Positions 5,568 through 48,619 of a DNA stretch of 64,000 bases are shown piece after piece. The notes below the pieces were generated by a model. It was not told the origin of the DNA. It saw only the letters and a program-made list of their open reading frames with translations, and did not search any database. A program made the position numbers and the translations under genes. This DNA is from Bacilli bacterium. Lineage in GTDB: Bacteria; Bacillota_I; Bacilli_A; RF39; UBA660. The DNA lies in contig JAFWEE010000013.1 of assembly GCA_017515795.1 (NCBI GenBank), forward strand, positions 2,010 to 66,009, in the 5' to 3' direction. Positions within the stretch are counted from its first letter, which is position 1. Each line of letters opens with the position of its first letter.

Positions 5568-6177
5568 ATTCATTATTTTTTAATATATTTTGTACTTTAT
5601 TCTTAATCCTTGAAATAGATCCATCTACTGCTTTAGGAGTTATATTTAATAAAGCTGCTATTTCTTTATAAGTAAATCCTTGCATTCTAAGCTCAAATAC
5701 ATTATATTCTGATTCTGTTAAAACTTCTTTTACTTGATTAAATAACTCATTCTTTTCTTCCATTTCAATAAATGAATCTTCTGGATTAATATTCTTATCA
5801 TCAAATAATAAATCTATTAAAGGTCTACCATTAGTATCAGTAGTAGTATCTATAGAAATAGAATCATTAAGTATTCTATGTTTATCTCTAGTTATATTTC
5901 TAATAAAACTATACATTTGTCTATCAATACAAATATTAGCAAATGTAGAGAATTGAACATTCTTTTGTTCTTTATAGTCTACTATTGCTTGTGATAAACC
6001 AATCATACCTTCTTGTACTAAGTCTCCTAATTCATAACCTTTACTATTTAAGAAACTAGCATACTTCTTAGCTTTAATCTCTATAATATCTTTATATCTA
6101 TCATAAAAGATATCTTTAGCATCCTCATTATTTTCTGATATTAAATATAATAATTCATTATCATTTTCTTTATACAT
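5566..6177 (-). CDS. sigH: RNA polymerase sigma-H-like factor
   Basis: DLVQEGMIGL..AI.DY, FSTFANICIDRQM; region 4 LTESEYNVFELRMQGFTYKEIA; canonical position after rlmB. Confidence 0.85.
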   Translation of the reverse strand: MYKENDNELLYLISENNEDAKDIFYDRYKDIIEIKAKKYASFLNSKGYELGDLVQEGMIGLSQAIVDYKEQKNVQFSTFANICIDRQMYSFIRNITRDKHRILNDSISIDTTTDTNGRPLIDLLFDDKNINPEDSFIEMEEKNELFNQVKEVLTESEYNVFELRMQGFTYKEIAALLNITPKAVDGSISRIKNKVQNILKNNE

Positions 6178-6179
6178 AA

Positions 6180-6872
6180 TTATTCACCTTTTTGTTTAAC
6201 AACTTCATATATAAGGATACCTGCTGCTACAGAGGCATTTAAACTATTTACTTTACCTTTCATAGGTATACCTATAATAAAGTCACTTTTATCTTTAACA
6301 AGCTTACTAACTCCAGCACCTTCATTACCTATTATTAAGCATGTTTTAGAGTCATATTTAACTTTAGTATAGTCTTCTCCATCCATACAAGATGAATATA
6401 CCCAGAAACCATTATCTTTTAGAGTATCAATAGCATTAGCTAAATTACTTACTTCTACTACATCTATATTACTAAGAGCTCCTGCACTAACTTTCATAAC
6501 AGTACCAGTAATACTAACAGATCTCTTATTAGGAATAATTATTGCATCTACTCCAGCAGATTCTGCTGTTCTAATAATAGCTCCTAAATTATGAGGATCC
6601 TCTAAATGATCTAACATTACTACGAAGTTCTTATCAAGTGTATCTTTAATAGATTTATATTTAAAATCTTCTATTTCAAGAACTATACCTTGATGATTTC
6701 CTTCAAATTTTCTATCCATTTCTCTTTTATCCATTTTAATGACTCTAATATTATTATTTGCTATATCTTCTAAAATTCCCTTGTCATCAAAATTATTAGA
6801 TAAATATATAGTTTTTATTTCTTTATCACTATTAATAGTTTCTTTAAATACATTCTTACCATATACTATCAT
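6180..6872 (-). CDS. rlmB: 23S rRNA Gm2251 2'-O-methyltransferase
   Basis: SpoU motifs DPHNLGAIIRTA, GNEGAG, IPMKGKVNSLNASVA. Confidence 0.95.
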   Translation of the reverse strand: MIVYGKNVFKETINSDKEIKTIYLSNNFDDKGILEDIANNNIRVIKMDKREMDRKFEGNHQGIVLEIEDFKYKSIKDTLDKNFVVMLDHLEDPHNLGAIIRTAESAGVDAIIIPNKRSVSITGTVMKVSAGALSNIDVVEVSNLANAIDTLKDNGFWVYSSCMDGEDYTKVKYDSKTCLIIGNEGAGVSKLVKDKSDFIIGIPMKGKVNSLNASVAAGILIYEVVKQKGE

Positions 6873-6873
6873 A

Positions 6874-7257
6874 TTAAACCTCCGTAATTATTCTAATTAA
6901 TTCATTAATTCTATCCATATCTTTCTTTATATATAGATATCCAAATAAACATTCTAAAGAAGTCGCATGTTTATAAGTTAATATATCTGTATTTTTAGGA
7001 TGACTATATACTTTAGCATTTCTACCTCTTTTAACAATATCTATTTCATCATCCATAAGAATATTATTATCTAGTAAATAAGTTATAAACTTAGCTTGAT
7101 TCTTCGCAGTAACATAATTTAATGCTAAAGTTTGTAATTTATTTACTTTGTTATAACCTTTATTAATTAAATACTCTCTAATCATTAGTTCATATATACT
7201 ATCACCAATATAAGCATAAACTAATATATTAATACTATTTAAATCCATTTTTTCCAC
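6874..7257 (-). CDS. mrnC: Mini-ribonuclease III
   Basis: LVYAYIGDSIYEL, KRGRNAK, YKHATSLECLFGYLY; upstream of rlmB. Confidence 0.92.
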   Translation of the reverse strand: MEKMDLNSINILVYAYIGDSIYELMIREYLINKGYNKVNKLQTLALNYVTAKNQAKFITYLLDNNILMDDEIDIVKRGRNAKVYSHPKNTDILTYKHATSLECLFGYLYIKKDMDRINELIRIITEV

Positions 7258-9938: not shown

Positions 9939-11441
9939 TTAACTTCTTGCTTCTTTAGACTCAATTATATCATTTAAATCATTAATGATTTTTCTGCATT
10001 CCTCAGCTGATACTTTTACATTATTTTTAATACATTCTTTTGGATGAACAAGATTTCTTGTTACACGTATTTCATGTGCTTTGGTAGACTCATACCAATA
10101 TGGTTTAACAACAATTTTCAATTTTTGAATAATCTTGTTTAATTCTAAATCTCTTCCATCATCACCTAAAGCCACATCTAATATATTATCAGTCTTCTCA
10201 TATTCTGAAAGCCAATCTAACAGAATAGCTTCCAAAATAGAACCACATAGAATAATTGCAGATTTATAAGCGTTATTTTTAAAGCAAGTCTCAACCTCTT
10301 TTAAATCGTCGTTAATTAGTTCTTTAATCACTTTGTTTTTCATTTTAGAAATTGCACTAATAATATCATCATTGATTATTTTTTGTGATTCACTTTTATA
10401 TTCGGATTTATATGAATTTCTAATTAACTCATTGATCTCATATGGAGTAAGTTTTTTCGAATTCATAGTATATTGCATAACTTCATCAGCATTTTTAAGC
10501 ATCTCTTCAGTTGGAACAATTACTTTTAATTCTCCAAAATCCTTTTTCGTTAAAGCAGGAAAATATGAGCAATGTTGTGTAGAATTAAAGTAAATTCTAG
10601 CTTTTTCATCATTTAAATAACTAACTAAATAGTTATTCATTTTCTTCTCTTTAACTCTTAAAATACAATAGTTTCCAGATTTTATGTACACATCATCATA
10701 GTTTTTATTATATAAATAGAACTTTGGCTTTTCACCTACAAGTAAACAAATAATATCTCCATTAACAACTTTTATTGCTCTCGACAATCTTGCCTTAGGC
10801 AATTTTTCATAAACTAACGGATATTCAAAAGATTTTGAATCAATATATTTTGCTTCTATATCCTTATCAGTTGGCGCAGATACTATATCTGCTATATCTT
10901 TTAATAGTTTATATTCACTTTCTTGAAGTTCTTTCCTTATCTTTATGGCCTGCCTTGTATAATATATTGGATTTAGATTATTTTCATCAAACATTGAATA
11001 ATCACTTATGTTAAGATCATCTCTATCTACTTTATTCATTTCAATATAAGAATTAATATTTTCAATAAAATTATTAAAATCTTCAGTTTTATTTTTTAAC
11101 TCATGCCATTTTCCATCATAAGGACTTTTTCCTTGCTTTTCTGCTACTTTACCATTAAATATACCTGTTAAAAAAGTGGATGGTTTTGACATTGTAAAAT
11201 GAATTAAAGCAAAGTTGATTCCTGTCAAAGCAAATGGGCTTGGAATTTGAATAATAATATCTATATATTTATCAGCAATCGACTCACAAATGTTTTTGTT
11301 TAATACTCCTACTGGTAATAATGCATAATCATATTTATATGATCCATCTACAATTGAATCATATAAAGAATCCCTACCTATACCATAAAGAGGATATTTT
11401 TGTCTATATTCAAGTACTTCATCAAAATTCATTTTATTCAC
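9939..11441 (-). CDS. Fusion of a methyltransferase C-terminal remnant, an HsdS-like target recognition domain and a HEPN domain
   Basis: ALLPVGVL...IQIPSPFALTGINFALI (MTase-like, no SAM-binding or NPPY motif); LKDIADI...NGDII...YLVSYLN...ALTKKDFGELKVIVP (TRD); EVETCFKNNAYKSAIILCGSILEA...RNLVHP (HEPN RX4H). Confidence 0.65.
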   Translation of the reverse strand: MNKMNFDEVLEYRQKYPLYGIGRDSLYDSIVDGSYKYDYALLPVGVLNKNICESIADKYIDIIIQIPSPFALTGINFALIHFTMSKPSTFLTGIFNGKVAEKQGKSPYDGKWHELKNKTEDFNNFIENINSYIEMNKVDRDDLNISDYSMFDENNLNPIYYTRQAIKIRKELQESEYKLLKDIADIVSAPTDKDIEAKYIDSKSFEYPLVYEKLPKARLSRAIKVVNGDIICLLVGEKPKFYLYNKNYDDVYIKSGNYCILRVKEKKMNNYLVSYLNDEKARIYFNSTQHCSYFPALTKKDFGELKVIVPTEEMLKNADEVMQYTMNSKKLTPYEINELIRNSYKSEYKSESQKIINDDIISAISKMKNKVIKELINDDLKEVETCFKNNAYKSAIILCGSILEAILLDWLSEYEKTDNILDVALGDDGRDLELNKIIQKLKIVVKPYWYESTKAHEIRVTRNLVHPKECIKNNVKVSAEECRKIINDLNDIIESKEARS

Positions 11442-11495: not shown

Positions 11496-12113
11496 TTATT
11501 GTTCTTTTATATGGCCTATCTTTTTTCCATTAATATCTTCTTGAACTATTTCAAAAGTTTTAGGTGGTAATAAACCAACAATCATTAATGGCGTTGTTAG
11601 AATATTGTTTAATGGTTTTAAATATTCAACATATTTTTCATAACTACCTACAGCGCCATCAAATCCACCTGCTTTTTTCATTTCATCCGTTGCAGCAATT
11701 ATTATTCCAACCTTAGTTTGTATTGCTTTTTGAACGTGATTTAATTCGCTCGATAAAACCGGTTTAATTAAATTCCATGATACGTTTCCCCCATGGTTAA
11801 AAGCTACTTCAATAGCAACATCTTCTTTGGCAAAATCTAATCTCCATGTTCCTTTATTATCTGAATAATCTGGATCAGCAAAGATAAAACTTTGTCTTTC
11901 CCAACCTTTATCAACTAATCTTTCGTCTATTAGTTCATTAATTGCTTGAGAAATACTTTTTGCCTTTCTATGTTCAGTATTAAACTTATCTATAATATCC
12001 TTATCAGTAATATTAGTTAATGCATCAGTTAATTCACTCCATAATTTATTAATATTTTCATCCTCTACAAATATTTCGTGTGCATGTCTATGCGAATAAG
12101 TAATAAATTCCAT
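11496..12113 (-). CDS. BglII/BstYI-family type II restriction endonuclease
   Basis: RLDFAKEDVAIEVAF PD-(D/E)XK-like core, VGIII, GSYEK; divergent from a DNA methylase. Confidence 0.75.
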   Translation of the reverse strand: MEFITYSHRHAHEIFVEDENINKLWSELTDALTNITDKDIIDKFNTEHRKAKSISQAINELIDERLVDKGWERQSFIFADPDYSDNKGTWRLDFAKEDVAIEVAFNHGGNVSWNLIKPVLSSELNHVQKAIQTKVGIIIAATDEMKKAGGFDGAVGSYEKYVEYLKPLNNILTTPLMIVGLLPPKTFEIVQEDINGKKIGHIKEQ

Positions 12114-12172
12114 TTTTTCTCCTTTTAGATCTTGTTTAAATCAAAAAATTGATTTAAAATATAAATATATTG

Positions 12173-12201
12173 TTGATCTTTTTTTATACTTATATTATAA
12201 T
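12173..12201 (+). promoter_or_regulatory. dcm promoter with GATC inside the -35 hexamer
   Basis: TTGATC(12173-78)-17 bp-TATAAT(12196-201); GGAGG RBS before ATG 12242. Confidence 0.75.
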
Positions 12202-12241
12202 ATAAGTACAGTATATAAACAATATCAGGAGGTAACAAAAT

Positions 12242-13486
12242 ATGAAAAAAACAGTTGTAGAATTATTCGCTGGTGTTGGTGGATTTAGATGCGGATTAAA
12301 CAACGTCGAATTGAAAAATGATAAAGTTATTGAAAATGGTGATTGGAAATTTGTATGGGCTAATCAATGGGAGCCAGCAACAAAAACTCAAGAAGCATTT
12401 GATTGCTATGTTAAAAGATTTGGTGATAAAGATGCTAGTAATGTTGATATATTTGAAGTAGATAAAAAGAAAATACCTAATCATACATTACTTGTTGGTG
12501 GTTTTCCATGCCAAGACTATTCAGTAGCTCAAACACTATCAAACAGTAAAGGTATTGAAGGAAAAAAAGGCGTTCTATGGTGGGCAATAAACGATATATT
12601 AAAAATAAAGAAACCTCCATTTGTTTTATTAGAAAATGTTGATAGGTTATTAATATCTCCTGCAAAGCAAAGAGGAAGAGACTTTGGAATAATTCTTAGA
12701 AGTTTTCTTGATAACGGATATGCTGTTCAATGGAGAGTTATAAATGCCGGAGAATATGGACTTCCTCAAAAAAGAAGAAGAGTATTCATATTTGCATATC
12801 ATAAATCAACTAATTACTATAAACAATTATCAAAGAGTAATCCAAAAGATATTATTTTTAAAGAAGGAATGTTTGTTAAACAATTTCCAATTAAAAATAA
12901 AGAATTTGAATTCAACACATCAAACATATCAAAAGACTCATTTGATAATTTAATAGATGTAAGTAATAAATTTAAAACTCAATTCTATAATTCTGGAGTA
13001 ATGATGAATGGAAAAGTATATACTTCAAAAGTAATCTCAGACTGCAACGAAATATTTCCACTAAAGGAAATAATCCAACATGAAGAAGTTGATCAAAAAT
13101 TCTTTTTAAGTGATGAAGCATATAAAAAATTTAAATATTTAAAAGGAAATAAAAAAATACCTAGAGTTAAACCAAACGGGGAAGAATACTTCTATACTGA
13201 AGGTGCTATGCCATGTCCTGATAACTTGGAATCTCCTGCTAGAACAATGCTAACTAGTGAAGGAGGAATAAGTAGAACAACTCATATAGTTGAAGATTAT
13301 AAAACAAAAAGAATCAGACTATTAACTCCAATTGAATGTGAAAGAATTAATTGTTTTCCAGATAATTGGACTAATACCGGAATGACAGATAAAAAACGAA
13401 ACTTCATGATGGGCAATGCTTTAGTAGTTGGAATTATAAAAAAAATAGGTATAGAACTAGATGAAATAATAAAAAAAGAAGATTAG
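12242..13486 (+). CDS. dcm: C5 cytosine DNA methyltransferase, M.Sau3AI-like (probably GATC)
   Basis: ELFAGVGGF, GGFPCQDYS, ENVDRLL, QKRRRVFI, MGNALVV; segments WANQWEP, QRGRDF, PARTMLTSE closely resemble M.Sau3AI as I recall it. Confidence 0.92.
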   Translation: MKKTVVELFAGVGGFRCGLNNVELKNDKVIENGDWKFVWANQWEPATKTQEAFDCYVKRFGDKDASNVDIFEVDKKKIPNHTLLVGGFPCQDYSVAQTLSNSKGIEGKKGVLWWAINDILKIKKPPFVLLENVDRLLISPAKQRGRDFGIILRSFLDNGYAVQWRVINAGEYGLPQKRRRVFIFAYHKSTNYYKQLSKSNPKDIIFKEGMFVKQFPIKNKEFEFNTSNISKDSFDNLIDVSNKFKTQFYNSGVMMNGKVYTSKVISDCNEIFPLKEIIQHEEVDQKFFLSDEAYKKFKYLKGNKKIPRVKPNGEEYFYTEGAMPCPDNLESPARTMLTSEGGISRTTHIVEDYKTKRIRLLTPIECERINCFPDNWTNTGMTDKKRNFMMGNALVVGIIKKIGIELDEIIKKED

Positions 13487-13502
13487 AAAATCTTCTTTTT
13501 TT
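13471..13502. terminator. Bidirectional terminator between convergent dcm and DGQHR genes
   Basis: AAAAAAAGAAGATT-AGAA-AATCTTCTTTTTTT. Confidence 0.8.
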
Positions 13503-14604
13503 AATAATTAAACGGATTAAAATCATCTAAAGATTCATTTTTAATTTTATTACACCAATCTTCCGCTAAAACAGTTGTTGGTGTTTCACCACCAAAAGGA
13601 TTCAAACCTAATGACTTAATATAATTCCCATCTGGATTAAATAAATCTGAAGGAATATAACATTCTGTACCTGTTACTCTCTTTATTGTAGAAGATACAT
13701 ATTTTCTATTAAATAACTCTCTTTCTGATACTGCCTTATCGTATAAAGTAGGTAACATTAATATCATAAATCTAAATCCAGCAATTTTAGAAAACGGAGC
13801 ATAGTTTTTATCTCTATCTGTTATTTTTATTCCAACAGCATCTTCCCAACCGCATAGATATTCTGACAACAATTTAAATGTTATTTCATCAGATAATTCA
13901 TTCCCACCAAGAAATTTAATTTTAGACTTAGCTAAAATATTAATGATTTGTTCTGCCTTAAATCCACCAACTATTTTTTCTCCACCCATTATAATTCTTC
14001 CTTTTAGTGGAGAAGAATTTTCAGTATTTAATAATTCAACTACCTCATGATAAGTTTTTTCTTTATCCGATAACATGTTTAATTGTTTTCTAAACCAAAG
14101 TAATAAATTTGATTCAACTTGTTTTTGTTCCTCATTAGTATTTTTGAATATAAGTCTTCTAGTTCTTAATGATGGTGTTACATACATATTAAACGCTAAA
14201 TCATAATCTACAGAGTCATCAATTTTAATTTTTTCTTCTAAGAAAGAAAATAATCTGTGTTGACCATCCATTATATCAAAACAATTCTTATACTTTTCAA
14301 ATTCCTCTTTTGTTTCAGGAAACTCGGTATAATATAAATTATCTATTTCCGAATCTTCAACTTTTTTTGGATACAATCTATTATCATCACACGTTCCAAT
14401 AACAATTGATGTCGATAATGTTCCACCATTTGAAACGAATTCTGCTATTGAATCTAGTCTTTTAGGATTAACAGGTCTTTGAGCGTCTTGGACCTCATCA
14501 AACTCAGCCTTAGTTGCCATTTTTACTAAATCCCTAGCAGAAGCAGAACCAAGATAACTTGTTTCCTTATTCTGTTTTACTTCTAAAAGATATATTTTTT
14601 TCAT
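13501..14604 (-). CDS. DGQHR (DndB/ParB-like) domain protein
   Basis: QRPVNPKRLDSIAEFV, IMDGQHRL, FKNTNEEQKQV; start moved to ATG 14604 after AGGAGG. Confidence 0.85.
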   Translation of the reverse strand: MKKIYLLEVKQNKETSYLGSASARDLVKMATKAEFDEVQDAQRPVNPKRLDSIAEFVSNGGTLSTSIVIGTCDDNRLYPKKVEDSEIDNLYYTEFPETKEEFEKYKNCFDIMDGQHRLFSFLEEKIKIDDSVDYDLAFNMYVTPSLRTRRLIFKNTNEEQKQVESNLLLWFRKQLNMLSDKEKTYHEVVELLNTENSSPLKGRIIMGGEKIVGGFKAEQIINILAKSKIKFLGGNELSDEITFKLLSEYLCGWEDAVGIKITDRDKNYAPFSKIAGFRFMILMLPTLYDKAVSERELFNRKYVSSTIKRVTGTECYIPSDLFNPDGNYIKSLGLNPFGGETPTTVLAEDWCNKIKNESLDDFNPFNY

Positions 14605-14614
14605 AAAAAACCTC

Positions 14615-15091
14615 CTATACAATCTTTAATAAGTATCTAATCTGATAATCTATACTATCATTTTTCTTTTCATTACAATTACTACATAGCATCTGTAAAT
14701 TATTCTCGAGCTCATCACCAACATACTTAAATGGTACAATATGATCAGCATGAGAATTAATATCTATTTTTTTTCCGCAAAAAGCACATTTATAATTTTG
14801 TTGATTAAGTAATTTTATTCTTATACTATCATCTATTACTTTTCTGAATGAAGACTTATTTAAAAACGCATTCACTAGCAGTAATAATCTGTCAATTTTT
14901 TCATCAGATAAAGTCTCACCATATTCCCTTTCTACGAGTTTCATAATAGAATTTTTAGGAGATGATGAACTTGCTAAAATATTTCTTAATTTATTTCTTT
15001 CATTATAATCATCATATGCAACGCAAATATTTTTAAATATAGAAAGAAGTTGTGCTTCTTCTACAGCATTTAATAAAGACAATTCAGGCAT
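14615..15091 (-). CDS. HNH endonuclease with N-terminal helical domain
   Basis: CAFCG...ADHIVP...NLQMLCSNCNEKK. Confidence 0.9.
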   Translation of the reverse strand: MPELSLLNAVEEAQLLSIFKNICVAYDDYNERNKLRNILASSSSPKNSIMKLVEREYGETLSDEKIDRLLLLVNAFLNKSSFRKVIDDSIRIKLLNQQNYKCAFCGKKIDINSHADHIVPFKYVGDELENNLQMLCSNCNEKKNDSIDYQIRYLLKIV

Positions 15092-15194
15092 CTATTTCAC
15101 CTCAGTTTAATAATACCATAATAAAAGAAAAGTTCCAAGAGGATCTGTTTTTTTATTTACAAGCAGATCTACAATTTAGATCTATAGTTTTAGT

Positions 15195-15944
15195 TTATGT
15201 TTTTTCTTTTATTACCTCTAATACATCTTTAGTCTTATTTAATGGATATGGTACATTCTTCTTTTTGAAGTATTCTACTTTTTGTACTTTAGCTTTTATT
15301 AGTTCTCCTGCTCTATCCACTAGTACTATATCTCCACTAAAGATATCTTTATTATCTGTTTTATAATAATACATTAATCCATCAAAATCTTCTATTAAAG
15401 GATCAAAGTAACATACTGATACATATATATAATCATATTTAGGTAATTTATATTTATTTAGTTTTATTAGGAATTTATCAAATGCTTTTCTTGCTATTAA
15501 GTCATAGTCTAATATTATTCCATGTTTACCATTATATAAGAATGTTTGTTTAATACTATTTCCTATATTTTCATATTCAAAATGACCTGTTTTAAAAGCA
15601 TATTTATCATTATCATCAAATATTTTCATCATATCATCAGATGCTGTATCTGATAGATATTCCATATAATCTTGAAAAAACTTTACTCTATCACCATCAT
15701 ATTCTTCATATTTAGATTTTTTAAAATTTCTTGAATAACTCATATTACAATTAAAACAATGATATTTTAATCTATCTTCTTCTTTTAATAGTTTTTCGGT
15801 ATCATAGTCTTTACTAAAGTATACTTCTTTATATCTATATAATTGAGAAAACACTTCATCTGGAGCATTATAAGATAAATACTTTAATGGTTTGCCACAT
15901 TCAGGACAATTAACATTTAATATATCTAAAGACATTATTATCAC
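15195..15944 (-). CDS. Hypothetical protein with N-terminal Zn-ribbon
   Basis: CPECG...HCFNC; C-terminal beta-rich YYYKTD...GDIVLV segment. Confidence 0.6.
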   Translation of the reverse strand: MIIMSLDILNVNCPECGKPLKYLSYNAPDEVFSQLYRYKEVYFSKDYDTEKLLKEEDRLKYHCFNCNMSYSRNFKKSKYEEYDGDRVKFFQDYMEYLSDTASDDMMKIFDDNDKYAFKTGHFEYENIGNSIKQTFLYNGKHGIILDYDLIARKAFDKFLIKLNKYKLPKYDYIYVSVCYFDPLIEDFDGLMYYYKTDNKDIFSGDIVLVDRAGELIKAKVQKVEYFKKKNVPYPLNKTKDVLEVIKEKT

Positions 15945-15991: not shown

Positions 15992-17530
15992 TTAAAAAAT
16001 TATTTCCACACAATTTTCGTTAATGATATTTTTAATATAGTTTATAAAAGGTATTAATAATTTTGTGTTATCTTTAACTAATGAATATAAATTATATAAA
16101 TATTCGAAATAACATTTTTCAATTTCTACTTCAGAAAAAACTGTTACTCCATCAAGGAAATATGACATTTTTACTTGATCATTGAATAATAATTTATCTA
16201 ATTTATAAGGTATATTTTCAATTAGTTCTTGTACATTGATTTCAGAAAGTTCATATGATATTTGAAATCTAACATCTAATTCTGAATTACCAAATCTATC
16301 AGTTTTTTCATAATAAACAATATTGTTCATAATATCAGTTAATTGTTCTTTTATTTCCTTATTAGTGATTTTTTTATCCACTATAATCTCTTCATTTACT
16401 TTTTTGCTCTCTTTAAATCTTTTTATATCTTCTTCTATTTGTTCAATACTTTGATATCTTTCGTTTTGATCATTTATTAAACATTTATCAATAATTTTAT
16501 CTAAAAATTCCATTCTAATACCTTTATATTTATCAGTAATAGGTTTGCGGTGTGTTCCTTTATGTGGCTCATTATATACAATCCATTGCATTATTTGACC
16601 TATTGAAAATATATCAGATGCCTCAGTAGGTGTTTTCTTTCTATCTCGCTGTTCAGGAGCAGAAAAATCAAAGTTTGCCAATCTATCTCCTTTTTGAGTT
16701 TTAATATTTATATCAAAATTATCTGGATTATAATATGCTATCCCAAAATCAGCAATATTTAATCTATTATTTTCGTCAATTAGGATATTGTTTGGCTTAA
16801 GATCTCTATGAATAATTCCACTAGAATGTAGCTTTTTTACCGCATTTATTATTTGTGTAAATATCAATATAATTTCATCATCGGAAAATTTTTCTTTATA
16901 GATTAGGCTATTATTATACTTTTTCATAACTATAATAGGAACTCGTGCTTCATTAATTATTATATCATCATAAAAATATTGTTTAACTATTCCTTCAAAA
17001 TTATTAATTTCCATAATAACATTAATAAATTCGCGAAGAAATCTTTCCTTTTTTTCAGCAGTTGAGTTCGTAAGAATTTTAATAGCTACATCATGCTTAT
17101 TTAATTCTCCAAAATATACTTTGCCATTAGCTCCACATTTACATTCAAGAGATACATTTTTTATACATCCCATTCTTGTATTTATTTCAAAGTTGTTTTC
17201 TTTTAAATATTTACTTATATCCATTTCTTTAGAATAAACTTTTGTTTCTACATTCATATTATTCTCCATATTATCAATTAATGGGTAAATTATTTCTTTT
17301 AGTCGATCTCTTCTTTTTTCATATCCACCTATTTTTTGAAATTCGTGTCTTAAATCATGTTTTGTTTTGGATTTTTTTAATTCATTTGGAATATCAACAT
17401 TATATTTAACAAGACATTTCTTTAGACTATTCAAATTATTATAAAATAAATTTTCATCATAATCATTTTTATTATATGTAACAATGTCCTCTAATGCTAA
17501 ATAAAAACCTTTTAACTCTTTTATATCCAT
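15992..17530 (-). CDS. Hanks-type Ser/Thr protein kinase, soluble, with extra N- and C-terminal domains
   Basis: [32 protein letters not shown] all intact; no TM or PASTA. Confidence 0.92.
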
Positions 17531-17994: not shown

Positions 17995-18495
17995 CTAAAT
18001 CTCAAATTCAACAGAATTCAACTTAGATATTTCAAAGTCTGTTTTCTGTATTTCATTATCGATTTCTTCTAGTCTTTCTCTTAGTTGTTTAGAGTCGAAG
18101 TTTACTTTCTTACACTCAAAATAAGAATTATTAACTTCAGTTACTCTCTTTTTCGAATCCTTTAACATTAATAGTTGCTCATAAGTTGATTTAAGCTTTC
18201 TTAAATTAGTATTGTCTACTATTGCTTGTTGTATACTTCTTCCGTCGCTTAGTTTAAACTCGTTGTTTCTATCATATAGAATTCCCTTTAATTTAGATAA
18301 TTCAGTAGCACTTCTTTCTATTTCTTTTAGATCTAGATCAAATTCTTCTTTATTATCTTCAATTACGTTAACTCTTCCATCTAGTTCTTCAACTGATGTG
18401 TTGATAGCATACCCTTTAATAGAATAACATCTACTATTTAAGTATCTTTCATATTCTGATATTAAACTCATTAATGCTGAAATATTAGTTTTCAT
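17995..18495 (-). CDS. Coiled-coil protein, DIP1984/DUF6847-like
   Basis: 166 aa from ATG 18495 (AAAGGAG RBS); helical hairpin pattern, SIQQAI, C-terminal LEEIDNEIQKTDFEISKLNSVEFEI; family call from memory. Confidence 0.5.
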   Translation of the reverse strand: MKTNISALMSLISEYERYLNSRCYSIKGYAINTSVEELDGRVNVIEDNKEEFDLDLKEIERSATELSKLKGILYDRNNEFKLSDGRSIQQAIVDNTNLRKLKSTYEQLLMLKDSKKRVTEVNNSYFECKKVNFDSKQLRERLEEIDNEIQKTDFEISKLNSVEFEI

Positions 18496-18548
18496 TATAA
18501 TCACTCCTTTTGATGTAATTAATATTACTACACTAAAAGACGTAAGTG

Positions 18549-18565
18549 GTCGCGAAAAAAGCGAC
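18549..18565. promoter_or_regulatory. GTCGC-N7-GCGAC palindrome, putative operator
   Basis: GC-rich inverted repeat in an AT-rich 83-bp gap between the HTH gene stop and the next start. Confidence 0.6.
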
Positions 18566-18578
18566 AAAAAAAATACTG

Positions 18579-18947
18579 TTATAAAACAGTACCTGTGTAA
18601 GTATAGAGATAATCGTTTATGATATTTAAATCATAAATCTTCTTATCTAGACAAAACGCAATAACCAAATCAAATCTAGTATTACTTAATGAATATCCAG
18701 CACTATTTAACAATCTGTTAAAGTCATTTCTGTTTAAACATAAAGCAAGTCCTAGTTTGATAACTACATTCCTTCTAGGAATATAGTTGCTACTACATCT
18801 TATCTTAGAAAATAATTTTCTATCTATATCTACCTTTTTGTAAATCTCAGAATCCTTAACGCCCTTTTCATCTATGAAAGAGAAAAGAATTTCGTTAAAG
18901 CACATTGATCTACTGTGACTTAAATAGTCCTTGCAAACCTCTTTCAT
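18579..18947 (-). CDS. XRE-like HTH protein (family also seen fused C-terminally to macro domains)
   Basis: FIDEKGVKDSEIYKKVDIDRKLFSKIR...KLGLALCL...LLNSAGYSLS..FDLVIAFCL. Confidence 0.75.
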   Translation of the reverse strand: MKEVCKDYLSHSRSMCFNEILFSFIDEKGVKDSEIYKKVDIDRKLFSKIRCSSNYIPRRNVVIKLGLALCLNRNDFNRLLNSAGYSLSNTRFDLVIAFCLDKKIYDLNIINDYLYTYTGTVL

Positions 18948-39415: not shown

Positions 39416-39569
39416 TACTACACCTCCCAGGTCCATAAAACATATAAAATTATACTTATTTTTTATTGGTATGTCAACAAAATAATGCAATTTTTATAAA
39501 TATTGATAAATTTGTTAATTTCCTGTGTACAAATCATCATTTATTCCTTATAATATATAACTAATAAAA

Positions 39570-39806: not shown

Positions 39807-41177
39807 TTGGAAAATAAGGATTTATTGTGGAAAAAATTTTTATCGTTAATTAAGAAAAAAGTGTCCTCATTAGGATACGATATCTGGTTTAAAGATACTG
39901 AACTCATTGATTTAAATGAGGATGCAGTAGTATTAGTTCCAACATCAACTCATAAAAAACACTTAGAACAATCATATAAAGATATGATGGAGGAAATACT
40001 ATCAAGTATATTAGGTACTAATTTTAATATAGTATTCGTATTAAAAGATGAATATAATGTAGAAAATAAAGAAGAACCTATTAAAAGAGAAGAGGAAGAA
40101 GTAGATCTTAGTTATAAAAATAAGAAAATAACTAATTTGAATCCTAATTATACCTTTAATAGTTTTATGGTAGGGGAGAGCAATGAATTTGCTAGAACCA
40201 CAGCATTAGCTGTAGCAGAAAGTCCTGGTAAAATATATAATCCTTTCTTTATATATGGTAATAGTGGACTTGGTAAAACACATTTAATGCATGCAATTGG
40301 TAATTATATTGTGCAAAACTCAAATTTAAGAGTCTTATATGTAACAAGTGAAACATTTATTAATGATTTTCTTGGAATTAGTAGAAAACATATAGATGGT
40401 AATAATTTTGATTATATAGAAGCATTTAAAGATAAATATAGAAATATAGATGTATTATTAATAGATGATATACAATTTCTTGGAACTGCTCCTAAATCAC
40501 AAGCAGAGTTTTTCCATACATTTAATACATTATTTGATGATAAAAAACAAATTATAATATCTTCTGATAATTCACCAGATGATTTAAAAAATCTAGAAGA
40601 TAGACTTAAAACTAGATTTAATTGGGGATTAAAAGTTAATATTTTTCCACCAGATAATGAATTAAAAATTAAAATATTAAAAAACAAAGTATCAAATATG
40701 AATATTGCACAACATATATCAGACGATGTATATGAGTTTATTGCTAATATATGTGATTCTGATATAAGAACACTTGAAGGATCATTAACTAGAGTAATTG
40801 CTTATTCCACAATGTTCTTTGAAGAAGAAATAACCGTAGATTTAGCAATGGAAGCTCTAAAAGGAACATTTAATATAAATATAGAAAATAAAAATGATAT
40901 ACAAAAGATACAAAGAATAGTAGCTGATTACTATAATATAACTATAGATGATTTAAAAGGTAAGAAAAGGGCAGCTAAAGTATCATTTCCTAGACATGTG
41001 GCTATTTATTTAGCTAGAAATATGACAGATGAGTCTTTTCCAAGAATTGGAATGGAATTTGGTGGAAGAGATCATTCCACAGTAATGAATTCATGTGATA
41101 GAATACAAAGTGAATTAAAAACTAATGAAAATTTAAAAGAAGTAATAGAGGAGTTGAAGAAAAAAATTAAAAAGTAG
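39807..41177 (+). CDS. dnaA: Chromosomal replication initiator DnaA
   Basis: GNSGLGKTHL, LLIDDIQF, FGGRDHSTV; TTG start. Confidence 0.98.
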   Translation: MENKDLLWKKFLSLIKKKVSSLGYDIWFKDTELIDLNEDAVVLVPTSTHKKHLEQSYKDMMEEILSSILGTNFNIVFVLKDEYNVENKEEPIKREEEEVDLSYKNKKITNLNPNYTFNSFMVGESNEFARTTALAVAESPGKIYNPFFIYGNSGLGKTHLMHAIGNYIVQNSNLRVLYVTSETFINDFLGISRKHIDGNNFDYIEAFKDKYRNIDVLLIDDIQFLGTAPKSQAEFFHTFNTLFDDKKQIIISSDNSPDDLKNLEDRLKTRFNWGLKVNIFPPDNELKIKILKNKVSNMNIAQHISDDVYEFIANICDSDIRTLEGSLTRVIAYSTMFFEEEITVDLAMEALKGTFNINIENKNDIQKIQRIVADYYNITIDDLKGKKRAAKVSFPRHVAIYLARNMTDESFPRIGMEFGGRDHSTVMNSCDRIQSELKTNENLKEVIEELKKKIKK

Positions 41178-41270
41178 TGGATAAATATAAATTATTAACA
41201 ATTTATAAACAACCAAAAATCATTATATAATAAAGAAATAGGGTAGTTATAAACATTATCCACACTAATA
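41176..41270. other. oriC, dnaA-dnaN DnaA-box cluster and AT-rich region
   Basis: Perfect TTATCCACA at 41256; near matches at 41176, 41192, 41203, 41247. Confidence 0.85.
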
Positions 41271-41306
41271 AAAATAAAATACTAAAAAAAAATAGGAGGA
41301 ACAAAA

Positions 41307-42428
41307 ATGAAATTTTCAATTAAAAAAGAAATATTATTAGAAAGTCTTAATATAGTAAGTCATGCTATATCAAGTAAAAACATTATTCCAGTACTAGGAG
41401 GAATAAAATTTGATTTAAAGAAAGATGGTTTATACTTAGAAGCTAGTGATAATGAAATAGATATTAAAACATTTATAGATAAAAAGATGATAGATTCTAT
41501 AGAAAAAGAAGGATCTATAGTAGTACAAGGTAAATATTTATTAGATATTGTTAGAAAGTTACCAGATGTACTTATTAATATAGAAGTAGTAGATGGATTA
41601 AAAATACTTATTTATACAAATAATAGTAAATTTAATTTAAATGGCATTGATTCGGATGAATTTCCTGATATTAAAATAGAAAAATCATCTAATCCTATAT
41701 CTATAAGTAAAAAATTAATTAAACAATTAGTTAATCAAACAATATTTGCAACTTCTTCACAAGAAACTAGACCAATATTAACAGGTATTAATTTTAAAAT
41801 AGATAAAGATGTTATGGAAGTAGTAGCTACAGACTCTTATAGATTAGCTAAAAAGACTATTAAATTAGATAAAGCTGTGGATAATGTTATTAATATAGTA
41901 GTACCATCTAAAAATATAGGAGAACTTATTAAAATAATAGATGATTCTGATGATGAAATTAAGATTCATATATTTACTAATAAGATATTATTTGAAATTA
42001 ATGATATTTATTTCCAATCTAGATTATTAAATGGTAATTTTCCAGATATTAATAGATTAATACCAACTGAATATAAAATAGTAGTTAAAGCATCAACATC
42101 TGATTTATATGATGTTGTTGATAGAGCTTCTTTATTAACATCAGAAAAAGAAAAGAATGTTATTAAGTTTGAAATAAATGATAATGAATTAATAGTAACA
42201 TCTAATACACCAGAAATAGGTAAAGTAGAAGAGAGATTAAATATTTCAAATGAAACTGGTAATGATCTAAGTATTAGTTTCTCAGCTAAATATATGCTAG
42301 AGGCTCTTAGAACTATTTCATCTAATAATGTTAAAATTTCATTAAATGGAGAAATTAATCCTATTATATTAACTAATGAAGAAAATGATGATTTAATTCA
42401 ACTTCTATTACCAATTAAAACATATTAA
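41307..42428 (+). CDS. dnaN: DNA polymerase III beta clamp
   Basis: PVLGGI, VATDSYRL, SRLLNGNFPD, LLLPIK. Confidence 0.97.
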   Translation: MKFSIKKEILLESLNIVSHAISSKNIIPVLGGIKFDLKKDGLYLEASDNEIDIKTFIDKKMIDSIEKEGSIVVQGKYLLDIVRKLPDVLINIEVVDGLKILIYTNNSKFNLNGIDSDEFPDIKIEKSSNPISISKKLIKQLVNQTIFATSSQETRPILTGINFKIDKDVMEVVATDSYRLAKKTIKLDKAVDNVINIVVPSKNIGELIKIIDDSDDEIKIHIFTNKILFEINDIYFQSRLLNGNFPDINRLIPTEYKIVVKASTSDLYDVVDRASLLTSEKEKNVIKFEINDNELIVTSNTPEIGKVEERLNISNETGNDLSISFSAKYMLEALRTISSNNVKISLNGEINPIILTNEENDDLIQLLLPIKTY

Positions 42429-42514
42429 GAGAACTATGTTCTCTTTTTTTAGTGGTATTTTTTTACAAAAAGAGAAAAATATATATGATAAGTTCCTGAA
42501 AGGGGGAGTTATAT

Positions 42515-42964
42515 ATGGATATTTATGAAATAAATAAAAATACTTTAGCTATTATTCCTATTGGTTATAATAAATCTAAAGTAATAGAAAAAGATAATGA
42601 ATTTGTAGTAAATATGGAACCATTAAGTATAATTAAATATAGTTGTGAATATTTTGGTTCAACATACGAAGGAAGACATGCAGGCACAAAATCTATAATG
42701 AACATAACTCATAAATCACCAATTATAATAGAAGAATCTCATAATTTAATATGTTTTCCAACTACATCACCAAGACTTACTGGATGTTCATGGATTATAT
42801 TAAATAATATTAAGTCATTTAATGGTAATCATGAATCTACAGACATTATATTTGATAATAATTATGTATTAAATATAGGTATTTCTATTAATTCATTTGA
42901 GAATCAAGTACATAGATCATATATGTTAGAATCATTACTTAGAAAAAGAATAGAAAATTATTAA
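42515..42964 (+). CDS. comK: ComK-family competence transcription factor
   Basis: PLSIIKYSCEYFGSTYEGR...THKSPIII...FPTTSP...CSWI. Confidence 0.8.
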   Translation: MDIYEINKNTLAIIPIGYNKSKVIEKDNEFVVNMEPLSIIKYSCEYFGSTYEGRHAGTKSIMNITHKSPIIIEESHNLICFPTTSPRLTGCSWIILNNIKSFNGNHESTDIIFDNNYVLNIGISINSFENQVHRSYMLESLLRKRIENY

Positions 42965-43111
42965 AATTAGGAAACTCAATTACTAAAAAAATTGAGTTTT
43001 TTTACTAAATTTTAATTTATTTACCCATTTTTATGATATAATATACATGTATGGGTAGGTAATTGGTTTTACTATAAAGGTGTTAAAAATGGGCTTTAAA
43101 ATAGGTTAAAA

Positions 43112-46124
<3,013 letters not shown>

Positions 46125-46135
46125 GAGGTTAGGTT

Positions 46136-48619
46136 ATGGATCACAGTAGAGATAGATTAGAAGAAAACAATATAGTAAAAGAAATAGAAACATCATTCCT
46201 AGAATATTCAATGAGTGTTATTGTATCTAGAGCATTACCGGATTTAAGAGATGGTTTAAAGCCTGTTCATAGACGTATTTTATGGTCAATGTATGAATCA
46301 GGTTATACACCAGATAAACCTCATAAAAAGTCGGCTAGAATAGTCGGAGATGTTATGGGTAAATATCATCCACATGGTGATAGTTCAATATATGAAGCAA
46401 TGGTACATATGGCACAAGACTTTAGTTATAGAAATATACTAGTAGATGGTCATGGTAACTTTGGTAATATTGAAGGTTATGGAGCAGCTGCTATGCGTTA
46501 TACAGAAGCTAGACTTTCAAAATTATCATTAGAATTACTTAGAGATATAAATAAAGAAACTGTAGATATGGTATCTAACTTCGATGAATCTGAAGAAGAA
46601 CCTGCTGTATTACCATCTAGATTTCCTAATATATTAGTTAATGGTACTATGGGTATTGCTGTTGGTATGGCAACAAACATTCCACCACATAACTTAGGAG
46701 AAGTAATAGATGGATGTGTAGCTTATATAGATAATCCTGATATTGATACATTAGGACTTATGAATTATATAAAAGGTCCTGATTTTCCTACAGGAGGTAT
46801 AATTCTTGGTAATAGTGGTATTAAACAAGCTTATGAAACTGGTAGAGGATCTATTACTATCAGAAGTAAGGCTACTATTGAAGAAAAAGATGGTAAACAT
46901 TATATAGTAGTAGACGAAGTTCCATATGGAGTTAGTACTTCTGCTTTAAAGAATAAAGTAGCAGAACTTGTTCACAATAAAACTATTGAAGGAATTTCAG
47001 ATTATCATACAGATTTAAAGAATGGTGTTAAAATCACTATTACATTAAAGAAAGATGCTAATGCACAAGTTGTATTAAATAATCTTTATAAACATACAGA
47101 TTTTCAAAAGAATTTTGGTATTATCTTCTTAATGCTTGATAAAGGCGTTCCTAAAACTCTAGGATTAAAAGAAATAATAGCAAAATATATAGACTTCCAA
47201 AAAGAAGTAATTATTAGAAGAACTAAATATGATTTAGGTAAAGCAGAGGCTAGAGTACACATCTTAGAAGGTTTAAAAATAGCTTTAGATCATATTGATG
47301 AAGTAATTAAGTTAATCAGAGCATCTAAGACAGATGAAATAGCAAGAGATGGATTAATGAGTAAGTTTGGTTTAACTGAAATCCAAGCAAATGCTATTTT
47401 AGAAATGAAGTTAAGAAGATTAACTGGATTAGAAAGAGAAAAGATTGAAGAAGAATTAGCTGAATTATTAAAGAAAATTGAAGAATTTAAAGCAATTCTT
47501 GCTTCTGAAGCAAAAGTTCTTGAAATAATTAAGAAAGAATTATTAGAAATTAAAGATAAATATTCAGATGATAGAAGAACTAAGATTGATATGACTGCTA
47601 TTGATTATATTGAAGATGAATCTTTAATTCCAGTAGATAATATAATAGTTAATATTACTAAGAATGGTTATATTAAGAGAGTTCCTACTGATACTTATAA
47701 GGTACAAAATAAAGGTGGAGTAGGAGTTAAAGGTATGACTACTAATGAAGAAGATATTGTGGAAAACATGATATCACTTCAAACTCATGACCATGTATTA
47801 TTCTTTACTAATAAAGGTAAAGTATATAGAATTAAGGGTTATGAAATACCTGAATTCTCAAGACAATCTAAAGGATTACCAGTAGTTAACTTATTACCAA
47901 TTGAAAAAGAAGAAAAGGTAATGTCTATATTACCAATAAGAGATCATGATGAACTAGGTACTATGAAGATTACGTTCGTAACTAAACAAGGATTTGTTAA
48001 GAGAACAGATATAGCTGAATTTGAAAGTATTAGAAAAACTGGTAAGATTGCTATAGGATTAAGAGAAACTGATGAAATCTTAACTGTAATGCTTACTAGT
48101 GGTAATGATGATATACTTATTTGTGCAGATAATGGTAGAATGATAAGATTTAATGAAACTGAAATAAGAGTTCTAGGTAGATCTGCTAGTGGTGTTAAGG
48201 GTATTGAAATACCTGATGATGCTAAATGTGTAAGTGCTGTTGTTGTTAAACCTGAAGATGAAATACTTATAGTAACTGAAAATGGTTATGGTAAGAGAAC
48301 TAATGCTGAAGAATATAGACTAACTCATAGAGGTAGTAAAGGTGTTAAAGCCATGAATATTACTGAAAAGAATGGTCCAATAGTTTCTGTAAGTAAAGTT
48401 GAAGAAGATTCAGACTTAATAATTATTACAAATAATGGTATGATTATAAGAATTCCATTAGATCAAGTATCTAAAATGAGTAGAGTCACTCAAGGAATTA
48501 GAGTTATTACACTAAAAGATGATCAAAAAGTATCTTCTACATCTATTTCTAAGATTGAAGAAGAAAAAGATGAAAATGTAGAAGAAATTACTCAAGAAGC
48601 ATCTGAAAGTGTAGAATAA
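46136..48619 (+). CDS. gyrA: DNA gyrase subunit A
   Basis: HPHGDSS, AAMRYTE, GyrA-box-like QNKGGVG. Confidence 0.98.

Follow-up and report, generated by a model that had tools for sequence, protein, structure and literature searches.

A tightly linked HNH nuclease and DGQHR protein gene pair as a candidate self-regulated defence module

Within a 64,000-nucleotide stretch of DNA from a Bacilli bacterium (assembly GCA_017515795.1, contig JAFWEE010000013.1, positions 2,010 to 66,009 of the forward strand; the whole stretch is hereafter the window), two consecutive genes on the minus strand encode an HNH endonuclease and a DGQHR protein that is related to DndB and ParB-like. The pair is most likely an autonomous, self-regulated nuclease module that defends against phages or other incoming DNA. 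By analogy, and with a probability that we put at roughly 0.55, it is a split counterpart of the GmrSD, BrxU, SspE and DndI enzymes, in which a sequence-specific ParB-fold sensor and regulator, gated by nucleoside triphosphate (NTP), would be joined by an HNH effector. A preliminary description of this DNA had recognised an HNH gene with an N-terminal helical domain, followed immediately by the DGQHR gene in the manner of an operon, and both the positions, on the minus strand, and the profile matches confirmed this arrangement:

14615-15091, minus strand: HNH endonuclease gene, 158 aa (PF01844, PF14279)
13501-14604, minus strand: DGQHR (DndB/ParB-like) protein gene, 367 aa (TIGR03187, PF14072)
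14605-14617, minus strand: coupling junction, where the HNH stop codon TAG overlaps the Shine-Dalgarno sequence GGAGG of the DGQHR gene (TAGGAGGTTTTTTATG)
15092-15194, minus strand: promoter and operator region of the pair, from consensus scan and sequence reading

The listed open reading frame of the DGQHR gene spans 13501-14622 and opens with a TTG at 14622. Its true start was assigned to the ATG at 14604, 18 nt inside that frame, because homologues align from that methionine, because a GGAGG overlapping the HNH stop codon precedes it by 7 nt, and because gene calls on conspecific contigs likewise give 367 aa; the HNH stop and the DGQHR start are then 10 nt apart.

Linkage and distribution of the pair

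When one genome per prokaryotic species was scanned with the DGQHR protein as the seed, 22 loci with relatives were retrieved, 20 of which could be assessed by virtue of having upstream DNA present, and in all 20 an HNH homologue was situated immediately upstream of the DGQHR gene. The carriers comprised Bacillota of several classes, one metagenome-assembled genome of Saccharibacteria, and Alloscardovia (Actinomycetota), while in eight more metagenomic lineages the HNH gene was likewise found directly 5' of the DGQHR gene. Butyrivibrio sp. AE3009, Selenomonas ruminantium S137 and Alloscardovia criceti DSM 17774 are among the carriers in culture. A reciprocal scan of metagenome contigs with an HNH alignment, made against the bias of seeding with one partner, found the DGQHR gene adjacent in 20 of 21 assessable loci. 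Five distant relatives from these HNH-seeded loci (27-34% identity) displayed the opposite order, DGQHR then HNH, with stop and start codons mostly overlapping, and a linkage that outlasts such an inversion argues strongly that the two genes function as a unit.

All-against-all clustering of the flanking open reading frames returned HNH and DGQHR as the sole genes common to the loci. The distance matrices of the two proteins were also correlated (Mantel r=0.80, with none of 5000 permutations as high), and the correlation persisted at r=0.70 after two long branches had been dropped. The preliminary description had staked its proposal on the two genes co-occurring elsewhere, and the near-absolute linkage, independent of gene order and accompanied by co-evolution, bears this out. 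Among the HNH-first lineages, nearly all share a junction in which the stop codon merges with the Shine-Dalgarno sequence as TAGGAGG or TAAGGAGG, the genes being separated by 8-14 nt or overlapping by 4 nt. The distribution across phyla is sporadic, that of a unit of about 1.6 kb shaped by horizontal transfer.

Features of the two proteins and their operator

The HNH protein matches PF01844 (E=1.7e-10) and PF14279 (E=3.8e-9), and the motif pattern CxxC...DH...N...CxxCN is intact. Across 19 homologues, C102, C105, H117, N131, C139 and N140 are invariant, and D116 (the catalytic Asp) and C136 are conserved in about 90% or more. Its AlphaFold2 model (pLDDT 95) consists of a four-helix bundle at residues 2-78 followed by a C-terminal zinc-finger HNH fold, for which the best Foldseek matches were the Cas9 HNH domain, EcoKMcrA and Cap5; the N-terminal bundle returned no specific Foldseek match. 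With its PF01844 match, catalytic residues, zinc-binding Cys pairs and a fold like those of the Cas9 HNH domain and McrA, the protein has the hallmarks of a canonical HNH endonuclease and is predicted to be the effector nuclease of the module, probably held by the DGQHR protein through the N-terminal helical bundle.

The DGQHR protein scores 82.8 bits against TIGR03187 (cut-off 58.85) and 31.4 bits against the PF14072 DndB profile (cut-off 29.1), the latter covering only its N-terminal half (residues 14-178, profile positions 5-163 of 338). Three motifs, QRP, MDGQHR and FKNTN, are invariant in 27 sequences; in the 367-aa numbering the DGQHR motif runs from D113 to R117. The AlphaFold2 model (pLDDT 86) displays an N-terminal alpha/beta domain and a helical C-terminal domain, and its best Foldseek matches were ParB-CDP, Noc and PadC (probability 0.89-0.98, E of about 0.01-0.08, low TM-scores); no sequence relatives with a solved structure were found. 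A DndB-like protein has been reported to bind ATP and GTP (bioRxiv 10.1101/2025.10.10.680097). The protein is predicted to act as an NTP-gated DNA-binding sensor and autoregulator with an N-terminal ParB/Srx-like nucleotide-binding domain. In an exhaustive profile search, 55 clusters at 50% identity reached E<=1e-30 and 134 reached E<=1e-10. No natural fusion of HNH and DGQHR proteins was encountered when the best 150 of 725 relatives were inspected. In more remote DGQHR proteins the fusion partners are HARE-HTH and, with scores short of the Pfam cut-offs, Mrr-type nuclease and Swt1-like HEPN domains.

A second line of evidence comes from the DNA preceding the pair, where a perfect 12-bp palindrome with the consensus TTTAGATCTAAA recurs. 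In the 150 nt 5' of the first gene of 25 lineages, it was present in 19, in one to four copies and in two or more in 17 of them. The core AGATCT was observed 43 times in the 25 upstream regions, where the remainder of these loci would predict 0.9, a 48-fold excess (Poisson P about 8e-56). The sites are spaced 13-14 bp or 26-28 bp apart, a spacing that recurs across lineages, and they flank or fall between good -35 (TTGACA) and -10 boxes, as in a repressor-controlled promoter. Even a locus of reversed gene order with a DGQHR protein only 34% identical (L073) bears the motif three times around its TTGACA. In the window the region reads as follows:

15178-15183: operator site 1, core AGATCT; the minus strand reads TATAGATCTAAA, with 11/12 matches to the consensus TTTAGATCTAAA
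15165-15170: operator site 2, core AGATCT (TGTAGATCTGCT), 13 bp from site 1
15141-15146: degenerate third operator site (minus strand CAGATCC, plus strand GGATCT, GATC at 15142), abutting the -35 box
15138-15110, minus strand: promoter-like site with TTGGAA (15138-15133), a 17-nt spacer, TATTAT (15115-15110) and an upstream TG, from a consensus scan and by itself not significant in AT-rich DNA

When the 17 carrier genomes were searched in full for pairs of sites no more than 24 nt apart, essentially the cassette promoter alone was returned, which indicates no regulon beyond the cassette. In a lineage that has lost the HNH gene (P0052, discussed below), the promoter with its operator sites now lies directly 5' of the DGQHR gene. 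DndB, a member of the same DGQHR family, is an autoregulator that binds to a pair of palindromes within its promoter (PMC4507180). Because the sites persist where HNH has been deleted and because DndB behaves likewise, the DGQHR protein is the likely operator binder, and by analogy it would bind TTTAGATCTAAA and repress its own operon. The operator, and the autoregulatory role that it implies for the DGQHR protein, go beyond the preliminary description.

Comparison with known systems and competing explanations

No system in PADLOC-DB v2.0.0 matches both proteins, so that the catalogued identity which the preliminary description had named as counting against a novel pair did not materialise. 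The DGQHR protein matches DpdB only, and weakly (E=3.3e-4), and the HNH protein matches only the generic PtuB and Cas9 HNH models; no description of an HNH-DGQHR pair was found in the literature searched. The preliminary description had noted the absence of dnd genes from the window, and this extends further: no match to DndC (TIGR03183) or DpdA (NF041059) exceeded its cut-off in any of the 17 carrier genomes, including the window's own assembly (66% complete), and none to DndE (PF08870) did so, in a search that had no positive control. The pair as part of a Dnd or Dpd modification system was ruled out by the absence of DndC, DndE and DpdA from the 17 carriers. Although it shares its family with DndB, the DGQHR protein is not DndB proper (40.9 bits against TIGR04172, cut-off 450, and no full-length DndB match): the operator of DndB is TACGN10CGTA rather than TTTAGATCTAAA, and DndB is encoded with dnd genes whereas the partner here is a nuclease, with no dndC or dndE in the carriers. 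DpdB is likewise a DGQHR-domain ParB-like protein, serving as the ATPase of the 7-deazaguanine Dpd system, yet the DGQHR protein is not DpdB either (21.2 bits against NF041060, cut-off 300), and no DpdA is found in the carriers.

The closest mechanistic resemblance is to the restriction enzymes that combine a ParB-type NTPase with an HNH nuclease, without the pair being a member of their families. GmrSD, BrxU, SspE and DndI unite a ParB/Srx-fold NTPase bearing a D-G-Q-x-R motif with an HNH-type nuclease, and, like the pair, they occur in defence islands as self-standing units. GmrS and GmrD are known in two-gene form as well (PMC4619093). In the DUF262 plus HNH enzymes SspE and DndI, recognition of a DNA mark alters NTP hydrolysis, which controls nicking (PMC11662687; PMC13251355). 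The differences are nonetheless substantial. The GmrSD group is built from PF03235 and PF07510, whereas the pair is built from PF14072/TIGR03187 and PF01844; PF03235 found no match in the DGQHR protein at E<=0.01, and DUF1524 (PF07510) none in the HNH protein, which has a canonical zinc-finger HNH instead. The pair always occurs as two polypeptides, its HNH protein has a four-helix bundle of its own, and it comes with a conserved palindromic operator. In addition, the GmrSD group performs type IV or phosphorothioate-sensing restriction, whereas any dependence of the pair on DNA modification is conjectural.

A direct comparison is afforded by locus L041, in which a single-chain protein of 362 aa (1646-2734) containing GmrSD_N (DUF262) and a canonical HNH domain is encoded 3 kb upstream of the pair, adjoining an EcoRI-type methylase gene, such that a fused and a putative split version of a ParB-fold/HNH nuclease coexist in one locus. 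The HNH domain of the pair aligned with that of this fusion protein by hhalign at 97% probability (E=3.8e-11), and the DGQHR and DUF262 proteins aligned by a 21-column, motif-level match of 6% probability in which DGQHR falls on DGQQR.

Two further comparisons place the pair more firmly. Septu is also a two-gene combination of an NTPase and an HNH protein, and its PtuB models weakly match the HNH core (E=1e-7 and weaker); its NTPase is, however, an ABC-type ATPase and not of the ParB fold, and no PtuA-like protein was found near the pair when the neighbours were scanned with PADLOC and Pfam. ParB-parS and KorB-operator systems are CTP-gated clamps at palindromes whose ParB-type nucleotide-binding fold the DGQHR protein may share, and the short palindromes of the pair, placed in promoters and conserved over a large evolutionary distance, resemble theirs. 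Unlike ParB and KorB, the pair has neither a ParA nor a KorA partner, has no recognised ParB helix-turn-helix and carries a nuclease, and any CTP binding, clamping or sliding by the DGQHR protein would be hypothetical.

On this footing a mechanism may be proposed. The DGQHR protein would bind the TTTAGATCTAAA copies across the -35/-10 region and keep the operon repressed, in the manner of DndB. Binding or hydrolysis of NTP by the DGQHR motif would switch it between a DNA-bound and a released, active state, and the switch would license the HNH partner, in a putative physical complex with it, to nick or cut target DNA. Operator binding, NTP gating and complex formation, together with the anti-phage role and the nature of the trigger and the target, are what we infer. 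A sensor and effector nuclease module, as the preliminary description proposed, is thus the best reading of an uncatalogued, linked gene pair in a defence-island context, with a putative role against phages.

Several observations weigh against this explanation. By Foldseek, the DGQHR protein resembles the ParB fold with a weak E-value (about 0.01), and its C-terminal helical half matches no structure. The operator is absent from 6 of the 25 lineages. Ordinary housekeeping genes, too, flank the pair. The characterised DGQHR proteins are DndB, a regulator, and DpdB, the ATPase of a modification machine, and neither is a defence sensor. One contig of 1.9 kb (L065, 2-805) has a decaying copy, its HNH gene fused in frame to the end of a miaA-like gene, with no promoter and no DGQHR gene. 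Finally, the P0052 lineage of the human gut (721 collection blocks) has retained the DGQHR gene and the operator with the HNH gene cleanly deleted, which implies that the DGQHR protein may act without the nuclease. In that lineage (L023-L032, about 5815-7098) the DGQHR gene is followed by genes for Fic, DUF1016/YhcG and a type I HsdM.

The asymmetric loss of the two genes also bears on an explanation in terms of toxin-antitoxin or abortive infection, according to which the DGQHR protein restrains an HNH toxin and represses the operon until infection frees the HNH protein, which would then destroy the DNA of host and phage alike so that the cell dies. Besides its deletion in P0052, the HNH gene is truncated by insertion of a serine recombinase in L045 (5566-5988), where the remnant is fused to a RhuM fragment, and it is split in L040, the DGQHR gene being intact in each case; moreover, the sole HNH-only contig has lost its promoter. 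More frequent loss of HNH is expected of any costly effector, although a toxin-antitoxin module predicts the same, and the tightly coupled, autoregulated architecture with an operator is typical of type II modules. Against this, the putative antitoxin differs from labile antitoxins in being large (367 aa) and bearing a conserved enzymatic motif; the gene of the putative toxin leads in most lineages but follows in others; the tally of losses is subject to ascertainment bias, most loci having been found via the DGQHR protein; and the related single-chain SspE, DndI and GmrSD act on foreign DNA and not by suicide. We consider a toxin-antitoxin role unlikely, at about one chance in a handful.

The cross-phylum mobility of the 1.6-kb unit might also be that of a selfish, homing-like nuclease cassette, or else the pair might be a chromosomal regulator with no part in defence. 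Its sporadic transfer, sometimes near integrases or recombinases, and the persistence of a DGQHR-only lineage fit such views. Yet the loci showed neither an intron nor an intein nor a fixed target site, the insertion contexts all differ, the pair is absent from phages and nearly so from plasmids, and the genomes have paired operator sites at the cassette only, all of which render this explanation highly improbable.

Genomic neighbourhood and wider significance

The preliminary description had the pair converge on a dcm gene, and this was confirmed: the DGQHR gene and a C5 methyltransferase gene on the plus strand are convergent, with 14 nt separating their stop codons. This methylase and an endonuclease, encoded divergently, make up a type II restriction-modification pair whose shared intergenic region (12114-12241) contains AGATCT and GATC sites:

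12242-13486, plus strand: C5 cytosine methyltransferase, M.Sau3AI-like (PF00145, E=1.6e-62)
11496-12113, minus strand: type II restriction endonuclease of the BglII/BstYI family, 205 aa (PF09195, E=3.8e-11)

The operator core AGATCT is identical with the target of BglII, conforms to RGATCY (BstYI) and includes GATC (Sau3AI, DpnII), and GATC-related enzymes recur beside the pair. The window methylase belongs to the PADLOC MTase_II family PDLC03329 (E=3e-168), members of which also lie beside the pair in L010, L011, L012/L033/L061, L051 and L063, and it is 72-74% identical to those adjoining the pair in L012 and L033. Mapped onto the DGQHR tree, this adjacency requires at least 4-5 independent gains or losses. 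The best solved relative of the window endonuclease is BstYI (RGATCY), collinear at E=0.001, and a homologue 45% identical to it is found beside the pair in L051; judged from its family, its recognition site likely has a GATC core. Other endonucleases partnering the methylase beside the pair resemble Sau3AI (E=7e-39 against its structure). In L001 a D12 (Dam-class) methylase and an AlwI-family enzyme are encoded directly upstream of the pair, L033 has a DpnII/MboI enzyme near it, and in L053 genes for a D12 methylase and a DpnI_C protein lie no more than a few kb away; for all these neighbours the specificities rest on family membership. In L077 (9131-9770), a conspecific locus, a frameshift splits the endonuclease gene, but the methylase gene and the HNH-DGQHR pair remain whole.

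These neighbours raise the question of whether the pair serves GATC-type restriction-modification in an accessory capacity, be it as a reader with a nuclease for which GATC methylation marks self from non-self or as a methylation-sensitive switch under the control of the neighbouring methylase. The GATC within the operator core argues for such a role, as do the precedents of DndI and SspE, in which an NTPase of like kind recognises a self mark, and the presence of a Sau3AI-type Dcm beside the pair in at least four independent lineages. The Dcm family was found in 7 of the 17 carrier genomes as compared with 14 of 198 background genomes, the latter being drawn from the window's own class and hence a rough comparison, not matched to all carriers. 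On the other side, both the Dcm family and D12 methylases are missing from 9 of the 17 carriers, three isolates among them; restriction-modification genes do not adjoin the pair in most lineages; GATC systems are widespread in the phyla concerned; and the specificities are assigned by family. Overall, an accessory role of this kind appears improbable. A strict requirement for GATC methylation is unsupported, given those nine carriers and with these two methylase families typed. The dcm gene is a recurrent neighbour and not a component of the pair, and its standing as an obligatory third component was ruled out, the pair being the sole conserved genes and 10 of the 17 carriers lacking that Dcm family. 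A further point against strict dependence is that the host genome shows no avoidance of AGATCT (251 observed against 213-305 expected). The promoters of neighbouring restriction-modification genes contain isolated GATC or AGATCT sites only, which is uninformative.

The proposal of the preliminary description that the pair may read the state of DNA modification is conjectural; it gains circumstantial support from the AGATCT operator and the GATC-type neighbours, and is countered by the 9 of 17 carriers with neither Sau3AI-type Dcm nor Dam-type methylase. A more specific and decidedly speculative version holds that the DGQHR protein reads TTTAGATCTAAA in an NTP-gated manner and that its binding or release is set by methylation of the embedded GATC, which would tie the HNH nuclease to GATC methylation and would explain why at least five GATC-related enzyme families recur beside the pair. 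Were this doubtful proposition true, the pair would be a restriction partner or back-up with GATC methylation (m5C of the Sau3AI type, or m6A) as the self mark, in parallel with the use of phosphorothioate by DndI and SspE, or alternatively a heritable, methylation-controlled on/off switch of a costly nuclease.

Beyond these genes, the flanks of the pair vary by locus, with defence genes frequent in them; the neighbours seen include Wadjet JetA/B, PIN7, Fic, SLFN-type helicases and Abi_2, as well as type I and type II restriction-modification genes, GmrSD_N-HNH and integrases. None of 50,697 phage genomes matched the pair, and one distant match each was obtained from 2.9 million viral contigs and from plasmids; on these counts the pair as a phage or plasmid gene was ruled out.

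Upstream of the pair in the window, a Ser/Thr kinase gene (15992-17530, minus strand; PADLOC PD-T4-6 E=4e-32, mad6 E=5e-32) is followed by one for a Zn-ribbon-like protein of 249 aa with no family match (15195-15944, minus strand). The two stay together in conspecific strains and may be a separate, kinase-based defence unit; neither adjoins the pair in any other lineage, and both were rejected as parts of the module. At 9939-11441 (minus strand), a protein of 500 aa has a region like the target-recognition part of type I specificity subunits (PADLOC Specificity_I, E about 5e-7), a weak match to MADS5 and a weak C-terminal match to DUF4145/HEPN; it stands alone, neither HsdM nor HsdR being encoded close to it. 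At the opposite end of the island (17995-18947, minus strand) are genes for a coiled-coil protein of the DUF6847/DIP1984 family (190 aa) and a protein of 122 aa with a weak PHROG match.

The host assembly amounts to 684 kb at 25% GC. A dnaA, dnaN, recF, gyrB and gyrA cluster at 39807-48619 of the window, together with a turn of the GC skew from negative to positive near 39500, places the chromosomal replication origin in the window, with the defence island some 25 kb away. Translation table 11 leaves the genes of the window itself open, while Dcm homologues of several genomes in the same class, those in G032, G046, G066, G092, G136, G171, G216 and one of two G147 copies, contain 5-8 in-frame TGA codons, so that those genomes probably read TGA as tryptophan.

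Enzymes uniting a ParB-fold NTPase with a His-Me nuclease constitute an emerging class of immune nucleases, to which the HNH-DGQHR pair would add a third architecture, split into two proteins and composed of a DndB-type sensor and a canonical HNH. The pair is widespread in human and animal gut Bacillota, and its defined and conserved 12-bp site makes both the reading of DNA by the NTPase domain and the gating of the nuclease directly testable, with the abundant HNH-less lineage serving as a natural experiment on the DGQHR protein alone. If the GATC connection is real, it would be the first link of classical methylation-based restriction to a ParB-type switch.

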